Part shown: positions 10,740 through 43,194 of the stretch, one piece after another
Layout of the letters: each line of letters starts with the position of its first letter
Numbering within the stretch: position 1 is the first letter of the stretch
Assembly: GCA_965226795.1 (NCBI GenBank)
Contig: CBDDDZ010000005.1
Coordinates: forward strand, 3,008,001-3,072,000
Direction: 5' to 3'
From: Candidatus Latescibacterota bacterium
Lineage (GTDB): Bacteria; Latescibacterota; UBA2968; GCA-2709665
DNA length: 64,000 nucleotides
Position numbers and translations under genes: made by a program
Notes under the pieces: model-generated
The model's input: only the letters and a program-made list of their open reading frames with translations
What the model was told of the DNA's origin: nothing
Databases searched by the model: none

Positions 10740-10976
10740 GTGGACGCAAAATTCATTCAATCCGATCCCTCTGTAATGATGGGGAAGCCCGTGGTTGCCG
10801 GTACCCGCATCACCGTTGAACTGATTCTTGATAAACTCTCCTCTGGCGACTCGATCGAGGAGGTTGTCGAAGCGCATCCCCGTCTCAGGAGAGAAAGCGT
10901 TCTGGCAGCTCTGCGTTTTGCAGCGCAGGCGCTTCGAGCCGACGTTGTTTATCCGGTAGCTGAGCAAGGCACATGA
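10740..10976 (+). CDS. DUF433-family antitoxin-like protein
   Basis: DPSVMMGKPVVAGTRITVELIL; AAGGAG RBS. Confidence 0.88.
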   Translation: MDAKFIQSDPSVMMGKPVVAGTRITVELILDKLSSGDSIEEVVEAHPRLRRESVLAALRFAAQALRADVVYPVAEQGT

Positions 10977-11203
10977 ATCTGCTGGCCGACGAGAACGTCG
11001 ACAAAGACTTCGGTGAACTGGTGTTTCGCCTGGGACGGAATCCAGCGGGGGTCGTGCTCATTCGCCTCGCGGGTTTGTCTGCGGAAGCGAAGGCAAGAAA
11101 CGTATCGAATGCATTTGCCGATCATAGCGATCAACTGATCTCAGCCTTCAATGTCGTTTCACCTGGAAGGTTACGAATTCGCCGCACTGCGAATAGGAAA
11201 TAG
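10973..11203 (+). pseudogene. DUF5615 PIN-like toxin with in-frame internal deletion
   Basis: MNLLADENV is fused directly to DKDFGELVF; these motifs are normally about 40 aa apart. Confidence 0.7.
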
Positions 11204-14395: not shown

Positions 14396-14481
14396 CCACC
14401 CGCCTCCCGAAAGAACACCCAAGTGAACGCCATCGCCCACACAAACGCCGACATCACCAACCTGTCTAGCAGACAGCCAGA

Positions 14482-14575
14482 CCACCGAAGTGAGGGGAGA
14501 TGGGGACGGCTTTGCCGCGGTCCTTCACGACGCGGTATGGGTCGGTCCTTGTTCTGATGGAAGATTCTCGACGTG
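14482..14575 (-). CRISPR. Degenerate hybrid mini-array: partial repeat B, 37-nt spacer, degenerate repeat A'
   Basis: CCACCGAAGTGAGGGGAGAT (14482-14501) is an exact 20-nt match to the trailer repeats of array B; TCCTTGTTCTGATGGAAGATTCTC starts at 14546. Confidence 0.75.
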
Positions 14576-14594
14576 TCCGCCTTCGATTGTTCAT

Positions 14595-14885
14595 TTAAGC
14601 CTCTCTTGGGATGCCTGCCGCTGCTCCAAACGCCTCTTGTGCTTCCCGTATCTTGACGTCCAACAACGCCTCATGTATCTCCTCTTGTATGTCCTGCTCC
14701 GCTTGCGTAAAGACATCGGCGGACCGCCGCCGGTAAACTTCCGTTCGGAATTCTTGGTTGTCCTCCCTGATCTTGTCTTGAAAAGATTCCCCTACCGCCA
14801 CTTCCATATCCGTCGCTGTCGACGGGTTTTCTAGCACGGCATTCTTTACCGCCTGCTTCAGCATTTCTCGCCTTCGATTGCTCAT
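14595..14885 (-). CDS. Hypothetical 96-aa acidic helical protein between CRISPR-like repeats
   Basis: GGAGG RBS between repeat end (14903) and ATG. Confidence 0.7.
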   Translation of the reverse strand: MSNRRREMLKQAVKNAVLENPSTATDMEVAVGESFQDKIREDNQEFRTEVYRRRSADVFTQAEQDIQEEIHEALLDVKIREAQEAFGAAAGIPREA

Positions 14886-14902
14886 TTAAGCCCTCCCAGA
14901 TG

Positions 14903-14939
14903 GTTTAAATCCTTGTTCTGATAGAAGATCTTCACCGGG
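14903..14939 (-). CRISPR. Isolated repeat A' copy
   Basis: GTTTAAATCCTTGTTCTGATAGAAGATCTTCACCGGG; 33/37 to the copy at 23236. Confidence 0.85.
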
Positions 14940-14940
14940 A

Positions 14941-15126
14941 TTAGCGGGCGCCTGGCGGCGCGTTTTTCAGCCGCTCGTTCGGCGTCGGCTTTGGCCCACA
15001 GGGCCAACTGGGAAAAGGTAGGAACCGGCAGGCCGCCTTGTAGTCGGCAGGAGCAAACGGCGTCCCGTCGGGATGCCAGCCGCGGCCGAAAATCTTTGTG
15101 TACTTTTCTTTAGGTAGGGTAGGCAT
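14941..15126 (-). CDS. WHPDGTPFAP microprotein, copy 1 (frameshifted after DYKA relative to copy 3)
   Basis: RGWHPDGTPFAPADY; the alternate frame continues LPVPTFSQLALWAKADAERAAE, matching copy 3. Confidence 0.7.
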   Translation of the reverse strand: MPTLPKEKYTKIFGRGWHPDGTPFAPADYKAACRFLPFPSWPCGPKPTPNERLKNAPPGAR

Positions 15127-15129
15127 AGA

Positions 15130-15166
15130 GATTCAATCCTTGTACTGATGGAAGATTCTCGCCGGG
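15130..15166 (-). CRISPR. Isolated repeat A' copy
   Basis: GATTCAATCCTTGTACTGATGGAAGATTCTCGCCGGG; 34/37 to the copy at 23236. Confidence 0.85.
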
Positions 15167-15172
15167 TTTATC

Positions 15173-15262
15173 TCAATCGAACCAATCCCAGGGCGTAAAG
15201 TATTTGATTCCAATAACCACCACAAGAATTACAGCAAGCAAGAGTATAAATCCCAAAATCAT
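15173..15262 (-). CDS. 29-aa single-TM peptide between two repeats (below ORF-track cutoff)
   Basis: MILGFILLLAVILVVVIGIKYFTPWDWFD*; AGGGG 5 nt before ATG; fills most of the inter-repeat interval. Confidence 0.65.
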   Translation of the reverse strand: MILGFILLLAVILVVVIGIKYFTPWDWFD

Positions 15263-15287
15263 AGCGGCCCCTATATACCTGTTTTCC

Positions 15288-15324
15288 GTTTCAGCCCTTG
15301 TCCTGATGGAAAATTCCGAGCGGG
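15288..15324 (-). CRISPR. Degenerate repeat A' copy
   Basis: GTTTCAGCCCTTGTCCTGATGGAAAATTCCGAGCGGG; 30/37 to the copy at 23236. Confidence 0.75.
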
Positions 15325-15348
15325 ATTGTGGTAGGGCGACGGCCGCTT

Positions 15349-15900
15349 TTATTCATCTCCTCGGATCTTGGCCAGCGCCTCGCTCGCAGCGTCTGCCATG
15401 AAATCCACAGAGTCCTTAAGATTTTCGTGTATCCATTCGAGATATCTGACCGCCCGTTGCTCTCGAAACTCACCGAGTTGCCGGATGATCGTCTCCCCCA
15501 GACCGGTGCCCAAAGGGTATCGGTCTCTGGCCATGTGCTCGAAAACGCTCACGAGCAGATTCAGCAGGTGTTGGCGAATTTCCTCCGAATCCGGTGAGGG
15601 TCTCCAGACGTAACGCGGGTTTTCCCAGGACACCCACTCGTCTGGTTGACCGGGCCGAACGCGCCGTTCCTGTTCCCAGCCGCCATGGCGCATCACCGGT
15701 CCGATGGGGATGCGATCGCGATCGGGCCGGCGATGTGGATGGTTCGCACAATAGGTGTAGAAGGGGTTCTCTATCGCGATGTCCCTGATCTCGCAATAGG
15801 GCGGTATACTCTCGTCAGCGCGCCGCAACCATTCGCGCTCGCCCCGGTTCGTTCGATTGAACCAACAGGTTCCGCAACAGTCGGATCCTCCGTTGGGCAT
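15349..15900 (-). CDS. Hypothetical Cys/His-rich protein with helical (HEAT-like) C-terminus
   Basis: MPNGGSDCCGTCWFN...YCEIR...YCANHPH; GGAGG RBS. Confidence 0.75.
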   Translation of the reverse strand: MPNGGSDCCGTCWFNRTNRGEREWLRRADESIPPYCEIRDIAIENPFYTYCANHPHRRPDRDRIPIGPVMRHGGWEQERRVRPGQPDEWVSWENPRYVWRPSPDSEEIRQHLLNLLVSVFEHMARDRYPLGTGLGETIIRQLGEFREQRAVRYLEWIHENLKDSVDFMADAASEALAKIRGDE

Positions 15901-16024
15901 CGCTCAGCCCTCCGCCCGGTTGTAACTCCGCAACCTCTCCCGCAACCGGTCATGCAGTAGCGCTCGCACCGTCACATCGTTCGGTCCAATCGAAATCCTC
16001 CGCAACGCATAACATAAAGTCCAT

Positions 16025-16045
16025 TTGTCGCAAGTATTGCGACAA
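16025..16045. promoter_or_regulatory. Inverted-repeat operator, same arms as upstream of the WYL gene
   Basis: TTGTCGCA-agtat-TGCGACAA. Confidence 0.7.
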
Positions 16046-16114
16046 CATTAAAAAAGCTATCGGCTGTTAGCGGGCAGCCGTCAGCCAGAAACAGTGAGAA
16101 AAGGAGCCGGTGTG

Positions 16115-16299
16115 AAGGTGGGGCAGACATTCCTGTCTGCCCTTATCATTGTCCTTCTGTCGCGATGCAGACAGAAGCAAGGCTTGCGCCGTCCTCTTTC
16201 CAGTGGGGAGACGGCGGCGAGTTGCGGCGTGCCCAGACACAGGATTCTGAGGTTTCGGTTTGATGTAAGTGAGCAGACAAGAATGTCTGCTCCACCCTT
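16115..16299. repeat. Inverted pair of REP-like palindromes (REPIN/MITE-like)
   Basis: AAGGTGGGGCAGACATTCCTGTCTGC ... GCAGACAAGAATGTCTGCTCCACCCTT. Confidence 0.6.
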
Positions 16300-16480
16300 A
16301 CAAGCCTTTGTTCGAATTACCGCTTGAGCGCGTCAACAATCTGAGACAAAATGCCTGTACTTGCTTCCACATTCCGAAGCAGCAAGGCGCCACTGTCACC
16401 TGTGTGCCTGCGGCGAGCGATGCTGTCGGCTTTTTTCATTCCATCCTCCTCGTTGAGTAGACAGATGCAGATCCAACCGC

Positions 16481-17214
16481 TCAGAACCGTTCACGGATGG
16501 CCCAGGCCTTGATCAAGTGGTGGGCGATGGCGATGGGTCCAGGCACCGACAGAACTTTGCTCTTGCCGTCGAGGGCCAGCAGCACTTCGCGACGCTCGAA
16601 CCAGTGCGCGTCGGACATCTCCTCATTGTCTATACGAATGGCGGTGGTGACCGCTTCCGCCAGGCAGCCGATCATAAGCGAACAGGGAAACGGCCATGGC
16701 TGCGAGGAGTGGTAGCGTACGTTCTTCACCCCGATACCCGCTTCCTCCATCACTTCGCGCGCCACCACCTCCTCGATCGCTTCCCCCTGATCGACGAAAC
16801 CGGCCAGGGCGGAGTACATGCGCAGCCGCGAAAGGCGACCGTGCGACTGCCCGAGCAGGCAACGGTCGGTGGCGGGGTCCCGGCGGTACGGCAATCCTCG
16901 AAACGCCAGCCCCGACCGTCCGCAACCCGGGCGGCTGCCTCGGGGAAGGGGGACATGTCTACGGCGAAGTGCGCGACCGCGTCCATCAACCCGAGGAAAA
17001 TCGGCTTCGCTCCGGTCGCAAAGGTCCGGATCCGTTGCGTGTGCAGCCAACCAAGCCGCGGTCGCAGGCAGTCGTCGATCAACACTTCGAGATCCCGGAA
17101 GGGCAGGAACCTGCTGCCGGCGGCGGTTTCGGCGCGATGGATCCAGGCTTCGTCCCGACGTTCGCGTTCGGCACGGTCGAGAGGATTGCCGGCGAATGGA
17201 TGCTGGGCATTCAT
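16481..17214 (-). pseudogene. nudC: NAD(+) diphosphatase NudC, internally deleted and frameshifted
   Basis: N-terminal FAGNPLDRAE in one frame; Nudix box YSALAGFVDQGEAIEEVVAREVMEEAG and SQPWPFP in another; zinc-finger segment missing. Confidence 0.8.
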
Positions 17215-17407
17215 GGATTGCGGTTACCGTAGCAGGCCGACGGGATGTAGACGGGGGAGTATCCGCACCTTAGCCGGTACTCTATCACGTGCAACTTCGG
17301 CGGCGCTGGATCACCATCCGGATGTCCAGCGCACCGCCGACCTGATGCGTCAACGTGAATGCAAACAGCCGGATATATCCCGCGTACTTTAGTCAGTTGC
17401 TGTTCCA

Positions 17408-18283
17408 TCAGGTGTCGAACAGGCTGTGCAGCCATGTATCGGCCTCTGGAATGCCGTCGGCGTTAAACACGAACTCCTGGCCGGGGCTGGCGCTCTTGAC
17501 GTAGGCCCACGGACCGTAGCGCTGCCACTGTTTTTTGCGATGATAGCTAAGCATTGGCTGCCCGTCGACGCGACAGAACCAGCGTGGCAGTCTCCAATAC
17601 GACCGGCTGCTCGCTCCGGGTGCGGTCAACATGACTCGGTCATTGGCACCTGAAAAAAGGCCGCCTCCGTTCGTTCGAGTTTCCGTTCCGCCGATGTTGA
17701 GTGTCCGGGTCGCAACGTAAACCGTGTTGTTCGGCGGCCATGATCGTCCATTGGGATGCAAAGGGTTGACGTGGGGATGGTCAGACAGCCAGGGCCGGAC
17801 TGTGCGGGCGCCGGCCGTATCGGTACCCACAGTAACGACCTCGGCCACCTGGAGCCAACCGAATAACCGGTGCACATCAGGAGCGTTCGATGCGTACTGC
17901 CATGTGCCCCCCTTCGCCGGTTCCGCGGCGCGAAACCAACCAAAGAATAGAAAGAGGTCGCCGGGCCCAACACCCTGGTTTTTCAGATGGCGTTGAGCGG
18001 TCTCGGCCTGCCCGAACGCCGCCAGCCAGCCGGGCGAACGCACAAGGGCATTGGCATTCAAATCGGGATCCAGATGACACCGGTCTCGTCCTTTCACTTC
18101 GCCGTTGGTCAAACACTCCACAATTTGGCCGAGAGACGTGTTACGCCACCGAACGTCATTGAATCGCGTCGGACTTCCGGGGTACGGAATCGGTAGGGAC
18201 AGGGCAGTGCCGTCGGGAAAAATGGGGCTTGGCTTGCCGCCATACTTCGCATCGAAACCCTTGCGGCTGAAGACAATCTTCAT
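17408..18283 (-). CDS. Nucleotide-modification-associated domain 3 (Nmad3)-like protein
   Basis: MKIVFSRKGFD...PSPIFPDG.ALSLPIP, HLDPDL, AFGQ, GDLFLFFGWFR, GQEFV; GGAGG RBS. Confidence 0.75.
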   Translation of the reverse strand: MKIVFSRKGFDAKYGGKPSPIFPDGTALSLPIPYPGSPTRFNDVRWRNTSLGQIVECLTNGEVKGRDRCHLDPDLNANALVRSPGWLAAFGQAETAQRHLKNQGVGPGDLFLFFGWFRAAEPAKGGTWQYASNAPDVHRLFGWLQVAEVVTVGTDTAGARTVRPWLSDHPHVNPLHPNGRSWPPNNTVYVATRTLNIGGTETRTNGGGLFSGANDRVMLTAPGASSRSYWRLPRWFCRVDGQPMLSYHRKKQWQRYGPWAYVKSASPGQEFVFNADGIPEADTWLHSLFDT

Positions 18284-18456
18284 TGGTACTCTTCCTCCAT
18301 TGGTCCGGTCAGGTTACCCAAGCTTACAGCAAAGAGAAAGAACCGGCAAGGTCAACGATAACATTCTTGCCAAGGTCCCCAGCAAGTCGTGGGGCGCAAT
18401 TCGGGCAACAGTCCACGCATCCTAAAGCGTTTCATCGATGTAAACGCTCATGACGG

Positions 18457-18493
18457 GTTTCAATCCTTGTTCTGGTGGAAGATTCCCAGCGGG
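18457..18493 (-). CRISPR. Solitary repeat A' copy
   Basis: GTTTCAATCCTTGTTCTGGTGGAAGATTCCCAGCGGG; 34/37 to the copy at 23236. Confidence 0.85.
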
Positions 18494-18686
18494 TTAGGCG
18501 CAACGAATGTGACAGGAGCATGTCGGTCTGGAGGTGTCGAATTGCATAGCAACTTCTGTCCATCGGGAGTCAGAAAATCGCGTCGAGGACGAAATCTACC
18601 CACCACTGCCCACCCGGATCAGCGAGGCTGGAGCAGAGACTTGGGTCTCAAAAGCGATCCGACGGGTTGTTTGTTCGATGATACTC

Positions 18687-19750
18687 TTAACGCTCGTCCG
18701 TCCTGCGTTTAAGTTCGTCGGCAATCCAATCGGCAGCATCGTGACGATTCATGCCAGCGAAGACACATCGAACAGGGAGATTGTAACCTGTTTCTTTTCT
18801 CACATCTCGTATTCTTACACCGTTGTCATCGGACACGATTGTTTCCCAAACGACCTTCACATGGTACTCACGCTCCTGTCCGAAAACGGTTGTGCCAGAG
18901 ATGACTTGGCCGTCAACGATCCTCCCGGCCGCCAATACACCTTTTTTGTTGACATAAGCAAAGACCCGCTGGTCTTCAGCACTTCCTGACAGATTAGTTG
19001 CACCCGTCTCATAGCCGTGAATGGCAATTACCCCCTGATCAAACATCTTGCGATACGCATTTGGGGCGTAGGTTTCGTTCGTATTGAAGATCCAATCGCC
19101 CTGCCACTTTTCTGCCGAAACGTCCTCTCCTTGCGACTGAATCTTTGGCAATGGCGCGATGTCCATCAGGATTTCTGCATCATCGGAATTTGCGTGGAGC
19201 GTGAATGGCACGAAGTTTATCGGCACACCGTATTCATGAAGCCATTTGACTATCCTCAACAAACCCTCATCAGACGCCGGAGCGACGATAATAATCCGGT
19301 GGCCTTGTTGCGCTTTTGGAATGTCCTTCTGATTAAATTCAGGATCGTCGGTTAGCTCTTGAATCCTTTCTAGCAAGGGGACATATGGGCTTCCGCCATG
19401 GCGTAGGGGCCAGTATTCTCGGTCCAGTTTTCTAGATCTTCATAGCTCTTTCCGGTCATTTCAGCAGCATATTCGAGCAGTTGGCCTACCGTCGCTCTAT
19501 CGGACCAGTCCCGCTTTATTTCGACGATGACCAAACGCCCGTCAGCGTCCAACGCCAAAATGTCTCCCATGCGTTTACCGGCAACGGACTGACCAATCAC
19601 CAGAATCTTCTCGGCACCAAACAGTAGATCGGGGTTCCGCGCCATCCAGTTTTCCAGGTTCTTTTCTGTAAGATTCAACTTTGACGCGGGCCGTTCTTCA
19701 TATGATTGAACCGCGGTCTCTTCTCCGTCGCGGATTAGCTTAAATAGCAT
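18687..19750 (-). pseudogene. NucS-like PD-(D/E)XK endonuclease with C-terminal domain; 1-nt frameshift near 19430
   Basis: TEKNLENW, GDILALDADGRLVIVEIKR, QLLEYA; adding one A to an A-run joins ORFs 19370..19765 and 18687..19376. Confidence 0.7.
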
Positions 19751-20078
19751 CGGTGTCCCCTCCATCGGTACGGTTCACCCTCACGCCATATGGGAAACAC
19801 ACAGTCATGCCGCGTATCCGTACGCCGCACAAAGGTTGGATCCCTGTGCGGGTGGGGAAAGACCGGCCAAGCACGGGCGCCGACGTCGTCCGGTCCGCTC
19901 TCCCGACCCAAGTGAGGTGAGATGCTTTTTCCCCGATCACTCTGCGGCGTATCCAAGTGTCGAAAAATGCGACGCGAGCTAACACACCAGCTCGTCGGCG
20001 AACGCATCTTCGATGTCCCGCGTCAACTGCAATCTTGCACACATCGGGCCTTTCACGGCGAGGATTCAAAGGTCCTGA

Positions 20079-21413
20079 TCAGTCTCTACCCGCGTTACTC
20101 TGCAGCGTCTTGTCAATCATCGTGGAGAACACCTGTTGAAACTGCTCGCAGATTTCAGATCGAGCCAGGTTTTGCAGGGGAAAACTCGGACGCCCCTTCA
20201 GACACCTGTCCAAAGTCACGTCGTCAATCCGGCACAAATCAGACCAGAGTTCTTTGCGAGCATTCTCTGTATGGAATGGGGCGACCATGTATTGGAATTG
20301 GACGACCACGCGGTCAGCCTTTATGCTGAAGGTCCACTGCAACAATTCCTTACCGTCTGCCAATGGCAATCTGTCGAGTTGGAACCAGATCTCCGGCGGA
20401 TCGGTATTGCGCGTCGGCATTCGGTTGAAATACGCGACCCTGCGGCCCGATCCTTCGAGTTCGACGTGTTTCCGGTGCGCCCACGCAATCAGTTCCTCGG
20501 CAATTCGAGCACACTCGCAGCCGGCACGGACCCCCAACTCATGCACAAATGAATCCGGATCGACAACCATGCCGCCCTTGAGTGGGGGGACTCGAAACTC
20601 GGCAATGAGAGGCGCGTGGTCGCTCCGGGTGCCCATGACGTTGTGATCGACTCGCAGCCGCGTGCACCGATGCGCGAGTTCCTCCGTGGCATACAGCCAA
20701 TCCAGCTGTGTGCCCGGGTTGCCGCCGAACGTTCGCACGTGGCGGCAGTCGCCGGCACCGCATGGACAATCCGGCATGGTGTCCGGACGATCCTCTGCGA
20801 TGGTAGCGAGATTGACGAGCCCGAGTGATTCGATGGCGCAGAACAGGGCGCGGTATCGAGGCAGTTCGAGCGTGTCAGGACGAGTTGCAGTTGTAATATT
20901 GAAGTCGCCACCCAGAATGACGCGCCTGCCGTCACCCGAGTCAAACAGCGGAATCAGGTCGGCGATAACACGGAACATCCTTGTTTGCGCATAGCCGTCA
21001 TCCATCGCGCCATACACACTCACACAGGTGATAGGGCCGACTTCAGGCACGTGGATTCTAGCAACAATCACGGAACCCGGAAGGCTTCCCAGCATGCTGA
21101 ACCTCGTGGCGCCGTATCGTGTACGTACGGCATCGATCTCCTCTGTTTCCAGGTCACAGGCGAACGCCACAACCGACGATCCCCAGGGCCGCCGGCCTGC
21201 GATCTCGCGGTATACGAAACGGTTACGGGGGATGTCAGACGGAGCAACGCTTTCCTGGAGCAGCATGACGTCAGCCTTCCTCTCCGTTTGAAGGTAACGC
21301 CATGCGTCCTTGCGCTGCTGCGAAGTCCGCTTCCAGTGATCCATGTTCCATGTGCCGATAGACAGGTTTCGCACAACTGGTGTTGAACAGGTCTTCCGGT
21401 CGCCTGCGGTCAT
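20079..21413 (-). CDS. Endonuclease/exonuclease/phosphatase (EEP) family protein with extra C-terminal domain
   Basis: TWNM, LLQES, GGDFN, QLDWLYA, SDHAPL. Confidence 0.85.
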   Translation of the reverse strand: MTAGDRKTCSTPVVRNLSIGTWNMDHWKRTSQQRKDAWRYLQTERKADVMLLQESVAPSDIPRNRFVYREIAGRRPWGSSVVAFACDLETEEIDAVRTRYGATRFSMLGSLPGSVIVARIHVPEVGPITCVSVYGAMDDGYAQTRMFRVIADLIPLFDSGDGRRVILGGDFNITTATRPDTLELPRYRALFCAIESLGLVNLATIAEDRPDTMPDCPCGAGDCRHVRTFGGNPGTQLDWLYATEELAHRCTRLRVDHNVMGTRSDHAPLIAEFRVPPLKGGMVVDPDSFVHELGVRAGCECARIAEELIAWAHRKHVELEGSGRRVAYFNRMPTRNTDPPEIWFQLDRLPLADGKELLQWTFSIKADRVVVQFQYMVAPFHTENARKELWSDLCRIDDVTLDRCLKGRPSFPLQNLARSEICEQFQQVFSTMIDKTLQSNAGRD

Positions 21414-21706
21414 TCAATTCCTCCACTTCGGTCGAGGCATTCTGCAATAGACGGGGCTGTCTTTCGGATCCTCACAGGCCAAATTCCGGTGAATGCATTT
21501 CGGGTTTACTTTCGCTGCCCGCGGACCTGATGTCGGTCCGAAACCGCACGTTTGCCAGGCCAGGAACCTGTGTTCTTACGAATCGCCGCGTCGAACTGAA
21601 TCGCCGTAAAGTATCCGGAGTGCAGGTGCGAAATGTACCTACCGTTTGCCAAACAAAGTGCTGTCAAACCCTCACGAGAGTGCTAAATGGTCCCCGCGGT
21701 CTGCAA

Positions 21707-21816
21707 GTTTCAATCCTCTCCCCCCACCAAAGTGAGGGGAGATTTTCAGAAACAGTTGTCGCCAATCCGTGTAATCTCTGTTTCAATCCTTGTTCTGATG
21801 GAAGATTCCCGACGGT
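21707..21816 (-). CRISPR. Hybrid mini-array: repeat B variant, 36-nt spacer, repeat A' variant
   Basis: GTTTCAATCCTCTCCCCCCACCAAAGTGAGGGGAGAT (21707-21743), spacer 21744-21779, GTTTCAATCCTTGTTCTGATGGAAGATTCCCGACGG from 21780. Confidence 0.88.
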
Positions 21817-21897
21817 GTGTGGAGCGCGAGCGAGGCACTGCTGTTCTGTGGGGTGTGTCTCATGTACGGTTACGACGCGGGGACCCACTATCCTCGG

Positions 21898-22980
21898 TTA
21901 GGCCAGGTTGGCAACGCGGCGCTCGGCGGCGGCGATGTCGGCGGCGCCGTCGAGCACGGTGATCTCCAGGTGGAACTCGCGTGTGGCGCCGGGTTCCAGG
22001 TACTCCAGGGAGTCGTGCCTGCGGTTCCAGGCGCGCCCGAGGGGCGAGCAGTTGCCTGGCTCCACGCCGGTCACGTAGCCGGCGGCGGCGAAGTGCTGCC
22101 ACTGAGTGACCAGCGGCAGCTCGGCAGCCGGCATGCGCCACTGCAGGCCGTACGCCAGCCGGTCGTTGATCAACGCAACGGTCACGTTGCCGTTGGCGTC
22201 CGGCACCGGCCGGTGCACGTATACGTCGTCGCCGGCGCCCGGCTCCGGGGCACGCGCCCGCTCGTACGCTGCGGCATCGACCGGGCGGTCCTGCAGCCAC
22301 TCGGTGCTGAGTTGGCTGTTGACCAGGAACCGGGTACCCTCGTCGAGCAGGGGGAAGCCGGGATTGGTGTGGTACAGCAGCATCAACGGCGAGCGCAACC
22401 CGCCGAGGTTCTCCACTCGGTCGTGGATGCTGATGCGGCGCTCGCCCAACGTAGTGGTGATTTCGCGGCGCAGCTCGAGCGTCGTGCCAAGTGCCACCGC
22501 TTCGCGCATGGTGCCGGCGATGCGCAGGTGGTATTCGTCTCCCTGCCAGCTTCCGCCGGCGCTCACGTCGCGCGCCGGGATGGCCGACAGCCGCCCGTGC
22601 AGGCCCAGTTCCTCGCCTTCCTCCTCCGGGTCGGTTTCGGGATGGCCGACGAAGGTCAGGCCGCAACTGATCAGCAGGCCGCCGAAGAAACTGCGCATCC
22701 AGCCGTAACCGGCGGGCTCGAAGAATGCCGGTCCGACGTCGCCGGTGGCGCTGCGGAAACACAGCGACCGCCCCTGGTAGGTGGCGGCGGCGATGTCCAG
22801 CGCCCGTCCGGGCAGTACCGAGAAGCTCAGCCCGGAGGCGTTGCTCACCTCGATCAATCCGGCGCCGCGCTCGTTGCCCTCGGTCAGCTCGGCGCGGCGA
22901 ACGGCGGCGAGCTGGCTCATATCGCCGACCAACCGCAGCAGCTCCGCCTTCGTGTAGTCGCGTCCAAACAGGTGTGCCAT
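21898..22980 (-). CDS. Aldose 1-epimerase-like (DUF4432) protein
   Basis: VGDMSQLA, GRALDI, FFGGLLISCGL, LGLHGRLS, LLYHTNPGFPL, GVEPGN; GAGGAG RBS. Confidence 0.8.
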   Translation of the reverse strand: MAHLFGRDYTKAELLRLVGDMSQLAAVRRAELTEGNERGAGLIEVSNASGLSFSVLPGRALDIAAATYQGRSLCFRSATGDVGPAFFEPAGYGWMRSFFGGLLISCGLTFVGHPETDPEEEGEELGLHGRLSAIPARDVSAGGSWQGDEYHLRIAGTMREAVALGTTLELRREITTTLGERRISIHDRVENLGGLRSPLMLLYHTNPGFPLLDEGTRFLVNSQLSTEWLQDRPVDAAAYERARAPEPGAGDDVYVHRPVPDANGNVTVALINDRLAYGLQWRMPAAELPLVTQWQHFAAAGYVTGVEPGNCSPLGRAWNRRHDSLEYLEPGATREFHLEITVLDGAADIAAAERRVANLA

Positions 22981-23093
22981 GCTCGCTCTCTCCTCTCGTG
23001 GACGGGGCGGCACCCGGCCAGCGGTCGTGCCAGCGGATGTCGCTGCCGATGCCGCCGGTAGGGCCGATCACCCGCCCCATAATCGCCGCGCCG

Positions 23094-23235
23094 TTACGCC
23101 GGGTGGCTCGCCGGGGGCAACGTGAGCGCGGCCGATCTGTGCTACCGAGGTACAGCCGATGAGCGCCATGGTGCGGCTCATCTCCTCGGCCAGCAGGCTT
23201 ACCTCGTAGCCGACCCCCGCTTCACCGCCGGCGCC
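23094..23235 (-). pseudogene. 3' tail of an FMN-dependent alpha-hydroxy-acid dehydrogenase, cut at a CRISPR repeat
   Basis: GAGGEAGVGYEVSLLAEEMSRTMALIGCTSVAQIGRAHV begins at the repeat border. Confidence 0.7.
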
Positions 23236-23272
23236 GTTTCAATCCTTGTTCTGATGGAAGATTCTCACCGGG
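23236..23272 (-). CRISPR. Repeat A' (reference copy)
   Basis: GTTTCAATCCTTGTTCTGATGGAAGATTCTCACCGGG; first 25 nt identical to repeat A. Confidence 0.9.
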
Positions 23273-23450
23273 TTATCGCGCTCGGCGTTCGGCGGCTCGT
23301 TCGGCATCGGACTCAGCCCAAAACGCCAGCTGAGCGGGGGTGGGGACGGGCAGGCCTGCCTCGCGGTAGTCCTTAGGGGGCAAAAGGCGTCCCGTCGGGG
23401 TGCCACGACTGTGAGAAGGTGTCGGAGTGCTTGTTGGGTGTTTTTGTCAT
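23273..23450 (-). pseudogene. WHPDGTPFAP microprotein, copy 2 (+1 in a homopolymer run)
   Basis: MTKTPNKHSDTFSQSWHPDGTPFAP then frameshift (G5 versus G4 in copy 3); the rest is nearly identical to copy 3. Confidence 0.7.
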
Positions 23451-23455
23451 ACGCA

Positions 23456-26400
23456 GTTTCAATCCTTGTTCTGATGGAAGGGTTCTGACCGGCCGCGGGG
23501 AAGGCGCTCGTTTGGCTATACCCCCAAAACTGTTTCAATCCTTGTTCTGATGGAAGTGTTTCGACCGGAAAAAATCCGAGAGCACCGGAGACAACCGGGG
23601 TTTCAGTTTCAATCCTTGTTCTGATGGAAGTGTTTCGACCGGCTGCCACCCGAGCCTACCGATCCGCCAATACCCGTAACGTTTCAATCCTTGTTCTGAT
23701 GGAAGTGTTTCAACCGGTATATCATACTGGGTCTGGAACAACAACATGGATACCTAGTTTCAATCCTTGTTCTGATGGAAGTGTTTCGACCGGCCTGATC
23801 GCCAGGACACACAAAGACGTCGAGAATCGAGTTTCAATCCTTGTTCTGATGGAAGTGTTTCGACCGGAACCACACCTGCGCGCCGTCCTTGCGGATGGTA
23901 GGGTGTTTCAATCCTTGTTCTGATGGAAGTGTTTCGACCGGAAAAACGACCAGTTGCCTAGATGCTTGGCGCTGATGCGTTTCAATCCTTGTTCTGATGG
24001 AAGTGTTTCGACCGGCCGCGGCGGCCACCGGTGGAAGATAGACCGGTACTTCGGTTTCAATCCTTGTTCTGATGGAAGTGTTTCGACCGGGATTGTGACT
24101 TTTTTGATCGCTCCTGAAGGACAATGTTTCAATCCTTGTTCTGATGGAAGTGTTTCGACCGGTCAATTACTTCATGGCAGTCACAACAAACGACTGGGGT
24201 TTCAATCCTTGTTCTGATGGAAGTGTTTCGACCGGTAACATCTGAGATTTTCTCAGTGTTCCCTCATGTTCGTGTTTCAATCCTTGTTCTGATGGAAGTG
24301 TTTCGACCGGCCAAGCAGCCAGATCATGAGGTCTCCTCTTTCAGATGGTTTCAATCCTTGTTCTGATGGAAGTGTTTCGACCGGCAGCGAGCCCACCGCG
24401 CACCACTGCACGGCGGTGGTACTGTTTCAATCCTTGTTCTGATGGAAGTGTTTCGACCGGTAATCCCCCTTGAAATGCTTCACCTGGGCCTGTAAGGTTT
24501 CAATCCTTGTTCTGATGGAAGTGTTTCGACCGGCCAACCAGTCTATTGTCGTGGGCTCGTCGGGGTCCACGTTTCAATCCTTGTTCTGATGGAAGTGTTT
24601 CGACCGGACGGTGGGCAAGCGCAAGGAAGCGCCGGAAAAGATGTTTCAATCCTTGTTCTGATGGAAGTGTTTCGACCGGTGGTGTCTACTTCGGTTAGGG
24701 TGCCGGTGGTCATCTGGTTTCAATCCTTGTTCTGATGGAAGTGTTTCGACCGGTGCACATCGGCAAGCTTCGCGGCGTTGGCCTGTGAGTTTCAATCCTT
24801 GTTCTGATGGAAGTGTTTCGACCGGCCACCAGAATAGTTGCCCGGCCTTTATCGTCTCGAGAGTTTCAATCCTTGTTCTGATGGAAGTGTTTCGACCGGC
24901 CAGTCTTTCTTGTTCGCAATTAGAACACGGGCTTTTTCGTTTCAATCCTTGTTCTGATGGAAGTGTTTCGACCGGAAAGATCCGTATTGAGTTTGGGCCG
25001 CGGTCGGAAAAGTTTCAATCCTTGTTCTGATGGAAGTGTTTCGACCGGCAAGCTGCAACTCAACTCTTGTCGCTTCGTCCAAAATGTTTCAATCCTTGTT
25101 CTGATGGAAGTGTTTCGACCGGGGTTTTCCGGGGTACAACGACTGACGTCCGGCCGGCCGGTTTCAATCCTTGTTCTGATGGAAGTGTTTCGACCGGGAT
25201 CGAATCTCGATATCTTATAGTCACCGGCCGCTTCAGTTTCAATCCTTGTTCTGATGGAAGTGTTTCGACCGGTGACGATGGAGATTTGCGTAAAGATTTA
25301 AGACATTTCAGTTTCAATCCTTGTTCTGATGGAAGTGTTTCGACCGGTGGGTTCCGGTACTTCGGATATCCGGAGAAGTTGGCTGTTTCAATCCTTGTTC
25401 TGATGGAAGTGTTTCGACCGGCGTGTGGGCCAGCATAACCACGCTTGCCCGGAGTATATGTTTCAATCCTTGTTCTGATGGAAGTGTTTCGACCGGCCTT
25501 GCCGCGCTGGTGTCTATGGTGGCGGCATTTCCATGTTTCAATCCTTGTTCTGATGGAAGTGTTTCGACCGGCGTTGCAAGGCTTTTATTGCCGGGTGTTG
25601 AACCCTCTGTTTCAATCCTTGTTCTGATGGAAGTGTTTCGACCGGCGTAGAAACTTCTTGGCCCACGCCTCATCTTCCCTGCGTTTCAATCCTTGTTCTG
25701 ATGGAAGTGTTTCGACCGGCAGATACACCTATGAACATAGACAAGTAGAGATTACAGTTTCAATCCTTGTTCTGATGGAAGTGTTTCGACCGGTATTAGC
25801 CTCTTGGGCTGCGATGAAGCTATTCTTGTTTCAATCCTTGTTCTGATGGAAGTGTTTCGACCGGGCTGCTGCAGCTATTCTTATACTATCTAGCGGGAAA
25901 AGGTTTCAATCCTTGTTCTGATGGAAGTGTTTCGACCGGTATCATGGCAGACTCACAGCGAGCGGCGAAATATTGTTTCAATCCTTGTTCTGATGGAAGT
26001 GTTTCGACCGGGAACTTTTGGAAAAAGCCGGGGGTAAGGTTGGAATTGTGTTTCAATCCTTGTTCTGATGGAAGTGTTTCGACCGGTCCGGATGGTACTG
26101 GCGGGAACCAGGTTTTGTTTGCCAGTTTCAATCCTTGTTCTGATGGAAGTGTTTCGACCGGCCCGCCGGCAGGGCGTCGTCGGTAGTGATGAGAAGCCCG
26201 TTTCAATCCTTGTTCTGATGGAAGTGTTTCAACCGGAAAATGGCTTGTGCGGCCTTTCGATATTTATATCGTGTTTCAATCCTTGTTCTGATGGAAGTGT
26301 TTCGACCGGAGGGCGGCTCGTGACGTCGATATTTATCTGGGGTGGCTGTTTCAATCCTTGTTCTGATGGAAGTGTTTCGACCGGCCTTGCCGACATTCTC

Positions 26401-29056
26401 GAATGGAGCATTGATATAGTCGTTTCAATCCTTGTTCTGATGGAAGTGTTTCGACCGGTCGCCTAAGCCGGTTTGCGTCTGCAAAAACTCATTACGGTTT
26501 CAATCCTTGTTCTGATGGAAGTGTTTCGACCGGTTAGCCTCCAGCGCCAAATACTCCTCACGAAGATCCGAGTTTCAATCCTTGTTCTGATGGAAGTGTT
26601 TCGACCGGCCGGTTGTGCTCGCGTAGCTGCGCCCGTGATGTGATGGTTTCAATCCTTGTTCTGATGGAAGTGTTTCGACCGGCCCGAAACAAAGAGGCCG
26701 TCACGTTCGCGCGGCTGGTGTTTCAATCCTTGTTCTGATGGAAGTGTTTCGACCGGAGGATGCCGTTGGCCTTTGAAGGCCACTTGGTATCCCGTTTCAA
26801 TCCTTGTTCTGATGGAAGTGTTTCGACCGGCGTGGGGTGTGCGTTTCGCTCCAACAAGCCATATCTGTTTCAATCCTTGTTCTGATGGAAGTGTTTCGAC
26901 CGGCCCCCACCTCACGCACGAGGAAGCCTAAGAAGAAATAGTTTCAATCCTTGTTCTGATGGAAGTGTTTCGACCGGCGGGCTCATGTCTGTATGGCCTG
27001 CGACGGATCAGGTCGTTTCAATCCTTGTTCTGATGGAAGTGTTTCGACCGGAAATTCCCACGCACTCGTTTCCCGGTGCTCATTTTGGTTTCAATCCTTG
27101 TTCTGATGGAAGTGTTTCGACCGGTGATCTAAAGAAATTGCAGGATCAGGTTGCGGCGAAGGAGTTTCAATCCTTGTTCTGATGGAAGTGTTTCGACCGG
27201 GTGCGAAGACAGAACCTCCCAATACCCTACTTGGTGTTTCAATCCTTGTTCTGATGGAAGTGTTTCGACCGGCGGGGAAAAAAGTTAAATGAAATTCCGT
27301 TTGTATTTATGTTTCAATCCTTGTTCTGATGGAAGTGTTTCGACCGGTCGTAACGTGACGGATGCGATATCAATCAAATTGATTAGTTTCAATCCTTGTT
27401 CTGATGGAAGTGTTTCGACCGGTGCACACGGAACGGCTGACGCTTCAGGCTGAACGGAGTTTCAATCCTTGTTCTGATGGAAGTGTTTCGACCGGCGCTG
27501 CAGACGTTCCCGGCTTCAGCGTCGTAGATGATGTTTCAATCCTTGTTCTGATGGAAGTGTTTCGACCGGCGCAAGGGCCATGCCTCGCCGCCCAATAGCG
27601 TGAAAGTTTCAATCCTTGTTCTGATGGAAGTGTTTCGACCGGTCATTGAAAAATTGCACCAAGTCGGGCGTCTGGTCGTGTTTCAATCCTTGTTCTGATG
27701 GAAGTGTTTCGACCGGTGAACACTGGCATGGCGCTTCAGCTTTACCACGAATTGTTTCAATCCTTGTTCTGATGGAAGTGTTTCGACCGGGCCGGAGCCG
27801 GGGGTTTTTTATGCCTCTAATCCCCCGGTTTCAATCCTTGTTCTGATGGAAGTGTTTCGACCGGAGAACCTTGAAATACGCATCAGCTACTGGGTATGGA
27901 AGTTTCAATCCTTGTTCTGATGGAAGTGTTTCGACCGGTCTGGGTGGCACGGGTAATCTCAGGGCGGTCTGGAAGGGGTTTCAATCCTTGTTCTGATGGA
28001 AGTGTTTCGACCGGCCGCATAGATGCCCGCCTGAAGGCTCCCGAACAATGTTTCAATCCTTGTTCTGATGGAAGTGTTTCGACCGGAAATGAAACAACAC
28101 GCAACATGGATCAGTATAATAAAAGTTTCAATCCTTGTTCTGATGGAAGTGTTTCGACCGGTTGTCTCTGTCGGCCCGTTCGTTCTTCAGGTCCTCTTTC
28201 TGTTTCAATCCTTGTTCTGATGGAAGTGTTTCGACCGGTCTGCCAAATTTCGTCTGCATGAAACTTGTCCTCCTAAGAGTTTCAATCCTTGTTCTGATGG
28301 AAGTGTTTCGACCGGGAAACAATCAAACTCACAAGGGAAGTAGACAATGACGTTTCAATCCTTGTTCTGATGGAAGTGTTTCGACCGGGGGGGTGTAAAT
28401 GGAACACTGGGAGGGCGACGAATGAGTTTCAATCCTTGTTCTGATGGAAGTGTTTCGACCGGCAACGTTCGCGCCTCCGCAAAGATCCCTACCGTACGGG
28501 TTTCAATCCTTGTTCTGATGGAAGTGTTTCGACCGGACGTTTCGGGAAGCAGGCGTTAGGACTACCTGAATAAGTTTCAATCCTTGTTCTGATGGAAGTG
28601 TTTCGACCGGTTTCGGGAACGGCAACGCCGGCAACTGTTACGTTTACGTTTCAATCCTTGTTCTGATGGAAGTGTTTCGACCGGTGGCCTGACCATGCAT
28701 TTGAAATGCTCGCCACTCGATGTTTCAATCCTTGTTCTGATGGAAGTGTTTCGACCGGTTATCATGATAGGCTTGCGCCGTTTCCTCAGCTTTTGGGTTT
28801 CAATCCTTGTTCTGATGGAAGTGTTTCGACCGGCTTCCTTTTTTTCTTACGTGATACGTTGGGGTACCGGTGTTTCAATCCTTGTTCTGATGGAAGTGTT
28901 TCGACCGGTACTTAAATCTCAAAGGTATCATCCTATCTCCCCAAAGTTTCAATCCTTGTTCTGATGGAAGTGTTTCGACCGGCACGGGTTTTGGTAGATC
29001 TTGAAGTTGTCCATATGGTGTTTCAATCCTTGTTCTGATGGAAGTGTTTCGACCGG
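23456..29056 (-). CRISPR. CRISPR array A: 76 repeats (37 nt), 75 spacers of about 34-40 nt
   Basis: GTTTCAATCCTTGTTCTGATGGAAGTGTTTCGACCGG on +; ends ATTGAAAC on -; degenerate repeat at 23456 marks the trailer; counted by hand. Confidence 0.98.
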
Positions 29057-29634
29057 CCGAGGTTCTCCACTCGGTCGTGGATGCTGATGCGGCGCTCGCC
29101 CAGCGTAGTGGTGATTTCGCGGCGTAGCTCGAGGGTGGTGCCAAGTGCCACCGCCTCGCGCATGGTGCCGGCGATGCGCAGGCGGTATTGGTCTCCCTGC
29201 CAGCTTCCGCCGGCGCTCACGTCGCGCGCCGGGATGGCGGACAGTCGCCCGTGCAGGCCCAGTTCCTCGCCTTCCTCCTCCGGATCGGTCTCGGGATGGC
29301 CGACGAAGGTCAGGCCGCAACTGATCAGCAGGCCGCCGAAGAAACTGCGCATCCAGCCGTAACCGGCAGGCTCGAAGAATGCCGGGCCGACGTCGCCGGT
29401 GGCGCTGCGGAAACACAGCGACCGCCCCTGGTAGGTGGCGGCAGCGATGTCGAGCGCCCGTCCGGGCAGCACCGAGAAGCTCAGTCCGGAGGCGTTGCTT
29501 ACCTCGATCAATCCGGCGCCGCGCTCGTTGCCCTCGGTCAGCTCCGCACGGCGAACGGCGGCGAGCTGGCTCATGTCGCCGACCAACCGCAGCAGCTCCG
29601 CCTTCGTGTAGTCGCGTCCAAACAGATGCGCCAT
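29057..29634 (-). pseudogene. Truncated second copy of the DUF4432 gene
   Basis: Homologous to 22403-22980; cut exactly at the first repeat of array A. Confidence 0.88.
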
Positions 29635-29689
29635 GCTCGCTCTCTCCTCTCGTGGACGGGGCGGCACCCGCCCCATTGTCGCCGCGCCG

Positions 29690-29830
29690 TTACGCCGGGT
29701 GGCTCGCCGGGGCAACGTGAGCGCGGCCGATCTGTGCTACCGAGGTACAGCCGATGAGCGCCATGGTGCGGCTTATCTCCTCGGCCAGCAGGCTTACCTC
29801 GTAGCCGACCCCCGCTTCACCGCCGGCGCC
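29690..29830 (-). pseudogene. Second copy of the FMN-dependent dehydrogenase 3' tail
   Basis: GAGGEAGV...RTMALIGCTSVAQIGRAHVAPASHPA*. Confidence 0.7.
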
Positions 29831-29867
29831 GTTTCAATCCTTGTTCTGATGGAAGATTCTCACCGGG
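29831..29867 (-). CRISPR. Repeat A' copy
   Basis: Identical to 23236-23272. Confidence 0.9.
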
Positions 29868-30035
29868 TTATCGCGTTCGGCGTTCGGCGGCCTGTTCGGC
29901 ATCGGACTCAGCCCAAAACGCCAGCTGAGCGGGGGTGGGGACGGGCAGGCCTGCCTCGCGGTAGTCCTTAGGGGCAAAAGGCGTCCCGTCGGGGTGCCAA
30001 CCTCGGCAGAAAGTATCTGAGTGCTTGTTGGGCAT
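29868..30035 (-). CDS. WHPDGTPFAP microprotein, copy 3 (intact, 55 aa; below ORF-track cutoff)
   Basis: MPNKHSDTFCRGWHPDGTPFAPKDYREAGLPVPTPAQLAFWAESDAEQAAERRTR*; TAA abuts repeat A'. Confidence 0.75.
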   Translation of the reverse strand: MPNKHSDTFCRGWHPDGTPFAPKDYREAGLPVPTPAQLAFWAESDAEQAAERRTR

Positions 30036-30054
30036 ACACATAATATTCGAAATG

Positions 30055-31477
30055 GTTTCAATCCGCTCCCCCCACCGAAGTGAGGGGAGATCTACCAGTC
30101 AGAGACGCTTTACCAGATGTCATGGGCGTTTCAATCCGCTCCCCCCACCGAAGTGAGGGGAGATCTACCACGTCGACATCAGATCGAAAGCTGTTTTCCT
30201 GTTTCAATCCGCTCCCCCCACCGGAGTGAGGGGAGATCGACGTCTCGGAATCGACGCTGTCGACCTCATACGTGTTTCAATCCGCTCCCCCCACCGGAGT
30301 GAGGGGAGATGTACCCAGTCCCACGCTGTCGTCAGCCACCCTATGTTTCAATCCGCTCCCCCCACCGGAGTGAGGGGAGATGTTGTTTTTGCAGGGCCAG
30401 GACACCCTTGTTATCATTGTTTCAATCCGCTCCCCCCACCGGAGTGAGGGGAGATTCAGCGCACCCCACGACCCGGTAAAATTTCTTACGAGTTTCAATC
30501 CGCTCCCCCCACCGGAGTGAGGGGAGATCACAGGATGATGCCGCCAGGCGCTTTGTAAGCGACGTTTCAATCCGCTCCCCCCACCGGAGTGAGGGGAGAT
30601 CCTTCGGGGCCGCCGATTTGCCGGCTGCGAGTGTCGGGTTTCAATCCGCTCCCCCCACCGGAGTGAGGGGAGATACAGGAAGGGCCCGGGCAAATTGGCA
30701 GGTGGGCATTGTTTCAATCCGCTCCCCCCACCGGAGTGAGGGGAGATCCCCTGGGCGCACTGGCAACAGCGGCGGTGGCTATAACGTTTCAATCCGCTCC
30801 CCCCACCGGAGTGAGGGGAGATTTGCCGAACAACCAGGGTTCCCCCGATCCCCAACAAGTTTCAATCCGCTCCCCCCACCGGAGTGAGGGGAGATCTATA
30901 CGCAGCATTTTCACGTCAGGATGTGCTTTTGTGTTTCAATCCGCTCCCCCCACCGGAGTGAGGGGAGATGGGCTCCCGTACCGTTTCCCGGCCCGCCGTT
31001 TGGGTTTCAATCCGCTCCCCCCACCGGAGTGATGGGAGATGCAGATTTCGTTACGGGGGCCGGTATCTCTTTCAGGGTTTCAATCCGCTCCCCCCACCGG
31101 AGTGAGGGGAGATCAACATATATATAGCTGTTTGCGCCGGGAACACCGCGTTTCAATCCGCTCCCCCCACCGGAGTGAGGGGAGATCTGCCGGGTCCATG
31201 TTGGGTCGTTTGTCGCTTCCAGCAAGTTTCAATCCGCTCCCCCCACCGGAGTGAGGGGAGATCAGGGACGCCGCGCCTACAAGCGCCACGCCATCAGTTT
31301 CAATCCGCTCCCCCCACCGGAGTGAGGGGAGATGTTTCGCTACCCCCCAACCCAAGCTCACCCTCTATGGTTTCAATCCGCTCCCCCCACCGGAGTGAGG
31401 GGAGATAAGTGTCTACAAACGTATTGCGGCGGAGTTCTCTGTTTCAATCCGCTCCCCCCACCGGAGTGAGGGGAGAT
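30055..31477 (-). CRISPR. CRISPR array B (type I-C-like): 20 repeats (37 nt), 19 spacers
   Basis: GTTTCAATCCGCTCCCCCCACCGGAGTGAGGGGAGAT on +; strong hairpin; variant repeats at the 30055 end. Confidence 0.98.
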
Positions 31478-33435: not shown

Positions 33436-33646
33436 CTAGATGATAGATTCGTAGCGAGTCGTGTTCAAAATCGATTTCCCTCAACAGACGATTCCGGAGC
33501 ACCGCCCATTCCGTTTTTCCAACCTGGCATTCAAACAGCGATTTTTGTACTCGAACTCCATAATCCTTGCAGGCCCTCGCCACGCGGCGGAGTCGTTTTT
33601 GTCCGGCCCGGTCAATCGTCGAGACGTCGTACGCGATCAGTTTCAA
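33436..33646 (-). pseudogene. cas2: cas2 5' fragment (IS-interrupted)
   Basis: LIAYDVST...RLRRVARACKDYGVRVQKSLFEC...DSLRIY; probable TTG start at 33646 with GAGGAG RBS. Confidence 0.9.
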
Positions 33647-33684
33647 TCCGCTCTCCTCAAACAGCAAAAAGTGGACACACTGTA

Positions 33685-34746: not shown

Positions 34747-34788
34747 GATTTGCGACTGAGCCCCTCGGCCCGCAACAGCCGGGCGAAT

Positions 34789-41293: not shown

Positions 41294-41316
41294 GCTTTTC
41301 TCCAGAGTTATTGCCA

Positions 41317-41680
41317 TCACTTTAACAGAACCTCCGTCAGCCGCTTTGGTTCCTTTTTGCGCGGGTCGACATCGAATCCGCCGGATTCCAGTGCCGTGAC
41401 GCCGAGCGAAGGCTCCGCGCCTTCATCCCCAAACACGGTGGTACCGCCGACAACTTCCCCCTCGAACTCAATTTCGGCGCGGGTAATGTCCAACGCGATG
41501 GATTCACCGTCCGCAAGCATGTACTCACGGCTCCACCGCGGCTTGAGTCCGATCGACTCGAGTTGCACCCGCGGCACGAGCGAATCGAACGATCCGGAAT
41601 CGACGAGGAATTCGCCGGTCCAACTGCGTTCCGGATCCGCAGGGGTTGCGTATGGTTACGTCAACGTACGTCGCACCCAT
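41317..41680 (-). pseudogene. Clan AA (retroviral-type) aspartic protease; +1 frameshift in a C-run near 41643
   Basis: MGATYVDVTIRN/PADPERSWTGEFLVDSGSFDS...LADG...LGVTALES. Confidence 0.75.
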
Positions 41681-43158: not shown

Positions 43159-43194
43159 CACGAATCCTCCGCGTGGCGAGAATATACATTCAGA

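Follow-up and report, generated by a model that had tools for sequence, protein, structure and literature searches.

A mixed type I-B/type I-C CRISPR repeat unit as a probable recombination scar in the repeat-punctuated defence tail of a Candidatus Latescibacterota bacterium

How do repeats of two CRISPR subtypes come to flank one spacer? The question is raised by a short unit at 21707-21816 of the window, by which we mean the whole analysed stretch of 64,000 nucleotides from a Candidatus Latescibacterota genome (G000). Read on the minus strand, which also carries the arrays, the cas operon, the lone repeats and the tail segments described below, a type I-B-family repeat variant is followed by a 36-nt spacer and then by a type I-C repeat; two repeat-like sequences thus surround a spacer-sized insert, as in the CreA/CreR regulatory RNAs. 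The 5' member (21780-21816, Cas6b-type) has 6 mismatches to the B-array repeat. The 3' member (A', 21707-21743) has 2-3 mismatches to the A-array repeat and keeps an intact 11-bp hairpin. The strain-variable spacer between them (spacer 1, 21744-21779) has no target among the sequences searched. The first-pass annotation had placed the hybrid at these positions, and a contig from run X1, which may be the source sample, agrees with it: the contig spans 21441-21807 with 0 differences, running through A' and the spacer and 28 nt into the B variant. The two repeats had also been described as alike at one end only, and indeed exactly the last 10 nt are common, with 12 of 37 positions identical overall. 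When lone copies, 6 of B and 3 of A, are placed at random between 14.4 and 23.2 kb, the chance of one such A/B adjacency is 1.4% and that of two is 0.0075%.

Two CRISPR systems had been assumed at this locus, but the genome encodes only one. Subtype calls based on Pfam and PADLOC identify a type I-C operon, cas5c-cas8c-cas7-cas3-cas4-cas1-cas2 (33431-41320), with no cas6 and with a hairpin repeat. Its A array comprises 20 repeats (30055-31477). The genome, which is 95.9% complete, contains a single cas1 and zero matches to the Cas6/RAMP profiles PF10040, PF03787, PF01881, TIGR01877 and PF17262. The B array (23456-29056, 76 repeats) is leaderless, its first repeat abuts a truncated copy of DUF4432, and no cas6b or cas8b of a type I-B owner was found beside it in G000. 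The B-array spacers (mean 37.2 nt) agree in length with those of B-repeat arrays in four relatives (p 0.29) and differ from those of A arrays (p 2e-5). The array is an orphan left behind by a lost type I-B system and bears no sign of construction by the type I-C Cas1-Cas2. Spacer acquisition copies one repeat and therefore cannot yield mixed flanks; this and the spacer lengths speak against the cross-acting Cas1-Cas2 that had been offered as a source of the hybrid.

Other features of the region are worth recording. The 3' half of an A repeat (33640-33676) overlaps the start of cas2 and could provide this gene with a start codon and a ribosome-binding site; one relative, G008, has the fragment as well, and it was not detected in G011 or G013. 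A DDE transposase gene (DDE_Tnp_1_4, 31819-33183, plus strand) is inserted between cas2 and the A-array leader and is absent from that position in G008. Upstream of the cas operon, dispersed repeat families D8, D11-D14 and D16 (44-156 nt) are found around a WYL gene (41955-46405 and 16050). Toxin-antitoxin-like genes flank the CRISPR region, with a DUF433-DUF5615 pair at 10740-11203 and an addiction-module antidote gene at 43971-44282.

Above 31478 one finds the type I-C operon together with a leader-like stretch rich in AT, deviant terminal repeats occupy the low ends, and on the minus strand A and B both finish in ATTGAAAC. The crRNA strand is therefore the minus strand, so that the B variant gives the 5' end of any transcript and A' the 3' hairpin; the chimeric crRNA proposed earlier, with an A' 5' tag and a B 3' hairpin, has its polarity reversed. 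A' folds into an 11-bp hairpin of -21.3 kcal/mol (z -4.1), and the B variant is unstructured (z +1.15), like B-family repeats in general (z about +1). Cas5c would be able to cut the A' hairpin, and a B-type 5' repeat would require Cas6b. Since Cas5c is expected to cut only the A' hairpin and no Cas6 match is available for the unstructured, B-family 5' repeat in this 95.9% complete genome, processing of both repeats by the resident system would fail and a mature guide would not be expected here. A weak promoter-like site is located 70 nt upstream of the hybrid (21914-21887; 9/12, 0.2 expected). RNA run X16, represented by a small share and uninformative where cover is lacking, has no listed piece over 21600-21898; its single joint in that region is an A repeat-spacer-A repeat with a different spacer. 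A scan of 13500-34000 with Rfam returned nothing at gathering score.

The length of spacer 1 is normal, 36 nt being the mode of the A arrays. With TTC and TTN, which we take to be the PAMs of the resident system, its longest genome-wide seed match is 8 nt next to TTC and 10 nt next to TTN, compared with 8-15 and 8-18 nt for 94 ordinary array spacers; the best seed match within the window measures 7 nt and lies inside a gene at 48897. None of these exceeds chance, and no seed of at least 10 nt falls in a cas or cargo promoter, so the partial promoter matches anticipated by the first-pass annotation did not emerge. Across the genus, eight of nine hybrid spacers perform no better than shuffles in their own loci, the remaining one being a G008 spacer with 9 nt (1/40 shuffles). 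The best non-self matches within the genome cover 24/36 nt of spacer 1 and 26/37 nt of the insert at a second junction (spacer 2, described below), and a 14-nt match to the 5' part of spacer 1 at C4:279553 lacks a TTN PAM. The longest overlaps with spacers of the two arrays, 10 nt for spacer 1 and 9 nt for spacer 2, do not count as matches. Viral origin fared no better: viral contigs contain no exact match to the stretches compared, 22 nt of spacer 1 and 25 nt of spacer 2, and phages and plasmids return only 22-nt chance matches to spacer 1 (E 0.4-5). Spacer 1 occurs in 0 of 14 genus relatives, and contigs from X3 and X8, which belong to two other studies, keep A' and its downstream DNA with the spacer replaced by other sequence. 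The joint conservation of position and spacer in related loci that characterizes CreA/CreR is not seen.

The hybrid had been reported as present twice. An A/B adjacency with a 37-nt insert does exist at 14482-14575, but it is decayed and is not the same unit: only the 5' 20 of 37 nt of A remain (14482-14501), the B variant has 9 mismatches and no 3' end, and the shared GGATTGAAAC end is missing from both repeats. This second junction is unfolded (z +1.15). It is inherited with relative G013, with one difference, and contigs of X1 and X3 both span it. We note that A repeats are interrupted after nt 20, at the same position, by palindromic REP-like sequence in four genomes (14465-14481 in the window; L022:9565-9634; L031:14810-14864; L092:15541-15574 and 19872-19895).

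The hybrid belongs to a tail of DNA behind the arrays in which solitary repeats separate gene-bearing segments. In the window, B is represented by 8 lone variants and A by 4 lone copies, whole or partial; each lies on the array strand, and genome-wide repeat scans gave no convincing copy beyond the CRISPR locus. The lone repeats mark off segments of 121 bp to 3.1 kb that contain an exonuclease-family gene, a NucS-like gene, Nmad3, orphans and a piece of 70% G+C. Next to the second junction, 14576-15324 contains three lone B variants (15288, 15130 and 14903) that set apart two ORFs, a hydrophobic one of 29 aa and one of 96 aa, and a frameshifted small-family gene. Nmad3, a split NUDIX gene and a 183-aa orphan gene fill 15325-18456, preceded by a lone B variant (18457-18493). 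A NucS-like gene in two pieces, with a PADLOC PDC-S11 match, occupies 18494-19886, next to a decayed lone A repeat (19887-19923). The segment after A' (19924-21706) carries an Exo_endo_phos gene (20079-21413), and A' travels with this downstream exonuclease gene in other strains.

On the other side of the hybrid, a 1419-bp segment of 70% G+C lies between two B variants (21817-23235) and consists of the last 39 codons of an FMN dehydrogenase followed by a whole DUF4432 gene (21898-23013). The FMN_dh fragment (profile positions 311-349 of 350) is cut mid-gene and begins at the last base of the repeat. The second of these B variants (23236-23272) has an identical copy at 29831-29867, and the small-gene segment after the last B-array repeat (23273-23455) contains a frameshifted copy of a 58-aa family. 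Between the two arrays lie a duplicated FMN-dehydrogenase tail and the 5' part of DUF4432 (29057-29830), the latter truncated within 1 nt of the first B repeat, and an intact 57-aa gene of the small family (29868-30041) whose stop codon abuts the B variant at 29867. The stretches 22398-23384 and 29052-29979 form a 96-98% identical duplication of the DUF4432 start, B variant and small gene, which puts the same trailer behind both arrays. No donor of the FMN_dh-DUF4432 piece was found, the FMN_dh tail matching only G000 and G013 among 30 loci with 1.5-kb flanks. Comparison of segment ends with their own genome by BLAST gave few edge matches and no pattern. In the lone B copies the 3' 25 nt are better preserved than the 5' 12 nt, which is partly a detection effect.

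Comparison with relatives reveals where the B repeats belong. Of 15 genus genomes, three have Cas6b (G003, G006 and G010), and these are also the three relatives with B arrays; cas6b adjoins the B array in G003, with a TM1802-type cas8b, and in G010, at a site syntenic with the window. B-core matches extend to 12 of 14 genus relatives, 9 of which have just 1-6 copies. Over 17 regions from 15 genomes, all repeat matches lie on one strand and nine mixed junctions have gaps of 20-45 nt, five running B-to-A and four A-to-B. They are distributed as two in G000, three in G001, two in G011 and one each in G008 and G013 (the orthologue of 14482-14575), so that 4 of the 14 relatives examined have them and both orders are represented; the scan is blind to short remnants such as the A 3' end behind the G008 exonuclease gene. 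Three of the inserts are alike and may not be true spacers.

The same tail segments recur among relatives in other orders. G008 and G013 have an identical copy of the B variant at 21780 behind the same DUF4432 segment; homology extends to the final base of this variant, and other DNA follows there. The DUF4432 segment is itself preceded by a B variant in G000 and G008 and by an A repeat in G013, in which its start is shifted by 5 nt. At E<=1e-60, 117 of the 168 genomes of the phylum have DUF4432; within the genus only 4 of 14 relatives do, each time in the tail. In G003 the last repeat of the type I-B array precedes a segment homologous to the Nmad3 segment of the window. Homology blocks of >=300 nt and >=88% identity inside tails, excluding ends near region edges or inside arrays, have 23 of 91 ends within 10 nt of a repeat (5.2 expected) and 12 that do so in both genomes (0.08 expected), under a null in which genome pairs are non-independent and the shared preference of repeats and breaks for intergenic DNA is uncorrected; the other 68 ends lie away from repeats. 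A contig from X8 is without 14554-15144 and is joined through 17 letters common to two B variants. Lone repeats persist in G002 and G009, single-contig genomes with no cas1 match. The former array of A' was not found in any relative.

The tails of relatives hold further elements. A third, shorter repeat, which we assign as I-C-like, is mixed into those of G008 (L031:14665-14701) and G014 (L010:2003-2035), and in G014 a small-family gene begins directly after it. Candidate defence genes matching PADLOC PDC-S37 and HEC-05 lie between lone repeats in G008 (L032:1511-6269) and G013 (L034:8175-9995).

In our view the hybrid is probably a scar left by recombination within a repeat-punctuated defence tail and not a designed RNA. 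The comparison across the genus shows that type I-B systems, with B repeats and Cas6b, and type I-C systems, with A repeats, have alternated at one chromosomal site, and that lone same-strand repeats left by lost or collapsed arrays punctuate a tail of defence-like and orphan genes behind the array. The block-end statistics and one strain variant show that these repeats are favoured crossover points as tails are exchanged or trimmed. A crossover in the shared 10-nt 3' end, or at its edge, would then have brought the DUF4432 segment, with its B variant, up against the last spacer and the last repeat of a type I-C array that once stood here or elsewhere. Host recombination via repeat identity or microhomology is the simplest candidate process; the edge-exact mid-gene cuts leave room for Cas1-Cas2. 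Of the recombination suggested by the first-pass annotation, exchange through repeats is upheld by the block ends, the strain contigs and the shared B variant, while we infer the crossover across the shared end. Several points run counter to a scar. The 68 of 91 block ends off repeats imply that other exchange points exist, and ten common nucleotides, all that A and B share, are short for RecA-type recombination. The perfect 11-bp hairpin of A' and the shared end kept in both repeats would also fit selection on an RNA. The weak promoter-like site upstream and the failure to find the former array of A' in a relative count against a scar as well.

The small genes of the tail form a family of their own. 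A gene of about 58 codons is present in 13 of 15 genus genomes and in 1 of 38 other genomes of the order. In the regions analysed, each of the 31 copies lies no more than 230 nt from a repeat, and 23 begin 2-5 nt behind a B repeat. An ATG stands at this distance behind 34 of 91 B repeats that precede a long segment, compared with 32 of 393 array spacers, the copies being related by descent. The purine-rich end of the B repeat would be the nearest candidate ribosome-binding site for the small gene; Cas6b would be expected to cut 8 nt from the repeat end, and such a cut would separate that site from the gene. Purifying selection is indicated by pN/pS values of 0.51 (19 aligned sequences) and 0.33 (10 closest pairs). 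One window copy is intact (29868-30041) and two are frameshifted (23273-23450 and 14941-15126), one frameshift being common to G000 and G013. A profile search collected 78 proteins at E<=0.001, among them 46 of <500 aa with a single match over the core, and most long matches consist of short repeated ones. The protein has no Pfam or PHROG family (56 members) and no Atlas match, and its predicted model (pLDDT 74) has no fold match at E<=0.001 in PDB or BFVD. Scans of genomes, metagenomes and viral contigs place strong matches in this lineage only, in metagenome assemblies of Candidatus Latescibacterota (4) or Gemmatimonadota (1); weak matches elsewhere (E 2e-5 to 1e-3) are short, and the two that were checked (L080 and L081) are without repeats. 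The domain is also fused inside two proteins of 450-460 aa (P0026 and P0033), and P0011 has it with a C-terminal extension. This selected 58-aa family is more novel than the hybrid itself.

The placement of these genes suggests that lone repeats may act in RNA, a long tail transcript being cut at repeats by Cas6b or Cas5c. The B 3' end would be the ribosome-binding site of the next gene, Cas6b cleavage would turn that gene off, and the hybrid would be a by-product. This fits the proximity of all 31 copies to a repeat, the 23 starts at 2-5 nt, the excess of ATG codons (34/91 vs 32/393), the pN/pS values, the better-preserved 3' 25 nt of lone B copies and the co-orientation of all repeats with the arrays. 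However, the family is found in 13 of 15 genomes and Cas6b in 3, leaving the switch unworkable in most; two of three window copies are frameshifted, the conserved 3' part owes something to how copies are detected, and the ATG counts are non-independent through descent. We hold this to be a minority possibility. Rather less probable is an integron-like cassette array, in which the lone repeats would serve for attachment. Cas1-Cas2, or some other enzyme, would join long DNA to their edges, making no difference between A, B and other repeats because of the 3' end that they share, and the hybrid would be a cassette site with almost nothing in it. Segments bounded by repeats on both sides do recur complete in different neighbourhoods, one of them behind A in one genome and behind B in another; a housekeeping FMN_dh fragment cut mid-gene begins at the last base of a repeat, the first B repeat lies within 1 nt of the point where DUF4432 is truncated, and the rarity of DUF4432 in this genus, where it is confined to the tails (4/14, against 117/168 in the phylum), points the same way. 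Yet repeats account for just 23 of 91 breakpoints, the sole strain-level crossover observed lies inside a 17-nt identity block and not at an edge, and the start of the G013 DUF4432 segment is off by 5 nt. Moreover, no integron integrase scores above cut-off (TIGR02249 matches fall below it and outside the window), a scan of 53 proteins from the window and 131 from relatives revealed no site-specific recombinase, and two genomes without cas1 still have lone repeats. An equally doubtful genus-wide proposal combines the two: repeats of several subtypes would be co-opted as cassette-array joints, at whose shared 10-nt 3' end (I-B/I-C) DNA of any length, mid-gene fragments included, is joined or exchanged, possibly by Cas1-Cas2. 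The B 3' end would serve as the small-gene ribosome-binding site, silenced by Cas6b cleavage and released on Cas6b loss or inhibition, and the hybrid would be the smallest exchange product.

That the hybrid is a CreA/CreR-like guide which loads the type I-C Cascade and represses a promoter seems very unlikely. Its spacer length, the A' hairpin and shared ends, which RNA selection would also produce, and the weak promoter-like site upstream are all compatible with a guide, and a short partial target may exist (10.1101/2023.03.03.530964). Regulatory mini-arrays described in the accessible parts of that source and of 10.1101/2023.03.10.532045 have seed matches of at least 10 nt to a PAM-flanked promoter and are conserved. 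Here the TTC-adjacent seed of 8 nt is at the bottom of the 8-15 range of the 94 control spacers, 8 of 9 hybrid spacers do no better than own-locus shuffles, the spacer is absent from all 14 genus relatives and from strains that keep A', some 20 kb separate the hybrid from where the cas operon starts, the searches for Cas6b gave no match and the polarity is reversed; the chimeric crRNA once envisaged is not supported. Least credible of all is an assembly artefact, a strain chimera joined at repeats. The metagenomic origin of the assembly, the adjacent 96-98% identical duplication and several split genes would invite it, but the X1 contig runs through A' and the spacer and 28 nt into the B variant with no differences, the second junction lies within X1 and X3 contigs, that junction and one small-gene frameshift are common to G013, and mixed junctions recur in four relatives.

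In integron cassette arrays, the IntI integrase acts on segments separated by attC hairpins. The tail is partly similar, with co-oriented segments shuffled between relatives at separators that are related recombination sites, and with enrichment in defence-like and orphan genes. It is unlike an integron in that no IntI was found, the separators are CRISPR repeats, segments have from zero to several genes or fragments, and exchange is not confined to separators, three quarters of the breakpoints lying elsewhere. Closer parallels are standalone repeat units (SRUs) and mini-arrays, which, in the available text of 10.1101/2023.03.03.530964, comprise two repeats around a 20-60 nt spacer without a leader. 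The same text regards unconserved, target-less mini-arrays near type III arrays as degraded and without function, and suggests that recombination can target the repeats left over in Francisella V-A loci. The hybrid resembles these units in lying near a locus but outside its array, with no leader, conservation or target found. It differs in having flanks from two subtypes (I-B and I-C), a case not met in the parts of that preprint covered, and in its setting, where up to about a dozen lone repeats per locus separate gene-bearing segments and breakpoints could be counted. Like CreA/CreR, creA-like versions of which are reported for type I-C in the accessible part of 10.1101/2023.03.10.532045, the hybrid is a degenerate mini-CRISPR that lies beside a type I system and has a spacer of normal length; unlike them, it has no PAM-flanked partial match in a cas or cargo promoter, lies outside the cas operon, is unconserved and has no enzyme found for its 5' repeat. 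In Listeria seeligeri, a promiscuous Cas1-Cas2 adds spacers to a foreign array, as the available text of 10.1101/2024.10.25.620265 reports, and here too an array without its own cas1 adjoins a system with one. Spacer addition gives no mixed flanks, however, and the orphan array here is leaderless with spacer lengths that match type I-B relatives. RNA anti-CRISPRs, described in the accessible part of PMC10651486 as solitary repeat units of mobile elements, likewise stand away from arrays; the lone repeats here differ in being chromosomal and beside the host's own locus, and no cognate Cas6 was found for the B variants to decoy. Within the literature covered, chiefly open papers and preprint main texts, we found no direct precedent for mixed-subtype flanks, repeat-bounded cassettes, Cas6 sites over ribosome-binding sites or the small-gene link. 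The hybrid itself fits the known class of standalone repeats and degraded mini-arrays.

If the hybrid is a recombination scar, as we think probable, repeats of different CRISPR subtypes can recombine with one another, and leftover repeats would help to build and reshuffle defence islands, as has been proposed in the literature for single repeats of this kind. A mini-array that is mixed or lone should not be taken for a regulatory RNA unless a target and conservation support this. Should the bolder, genus-wide proposal prove true, CRISPR repeats would serve as integron-like joints and would also place a new small-protein family under a Cas6-sensing switch.
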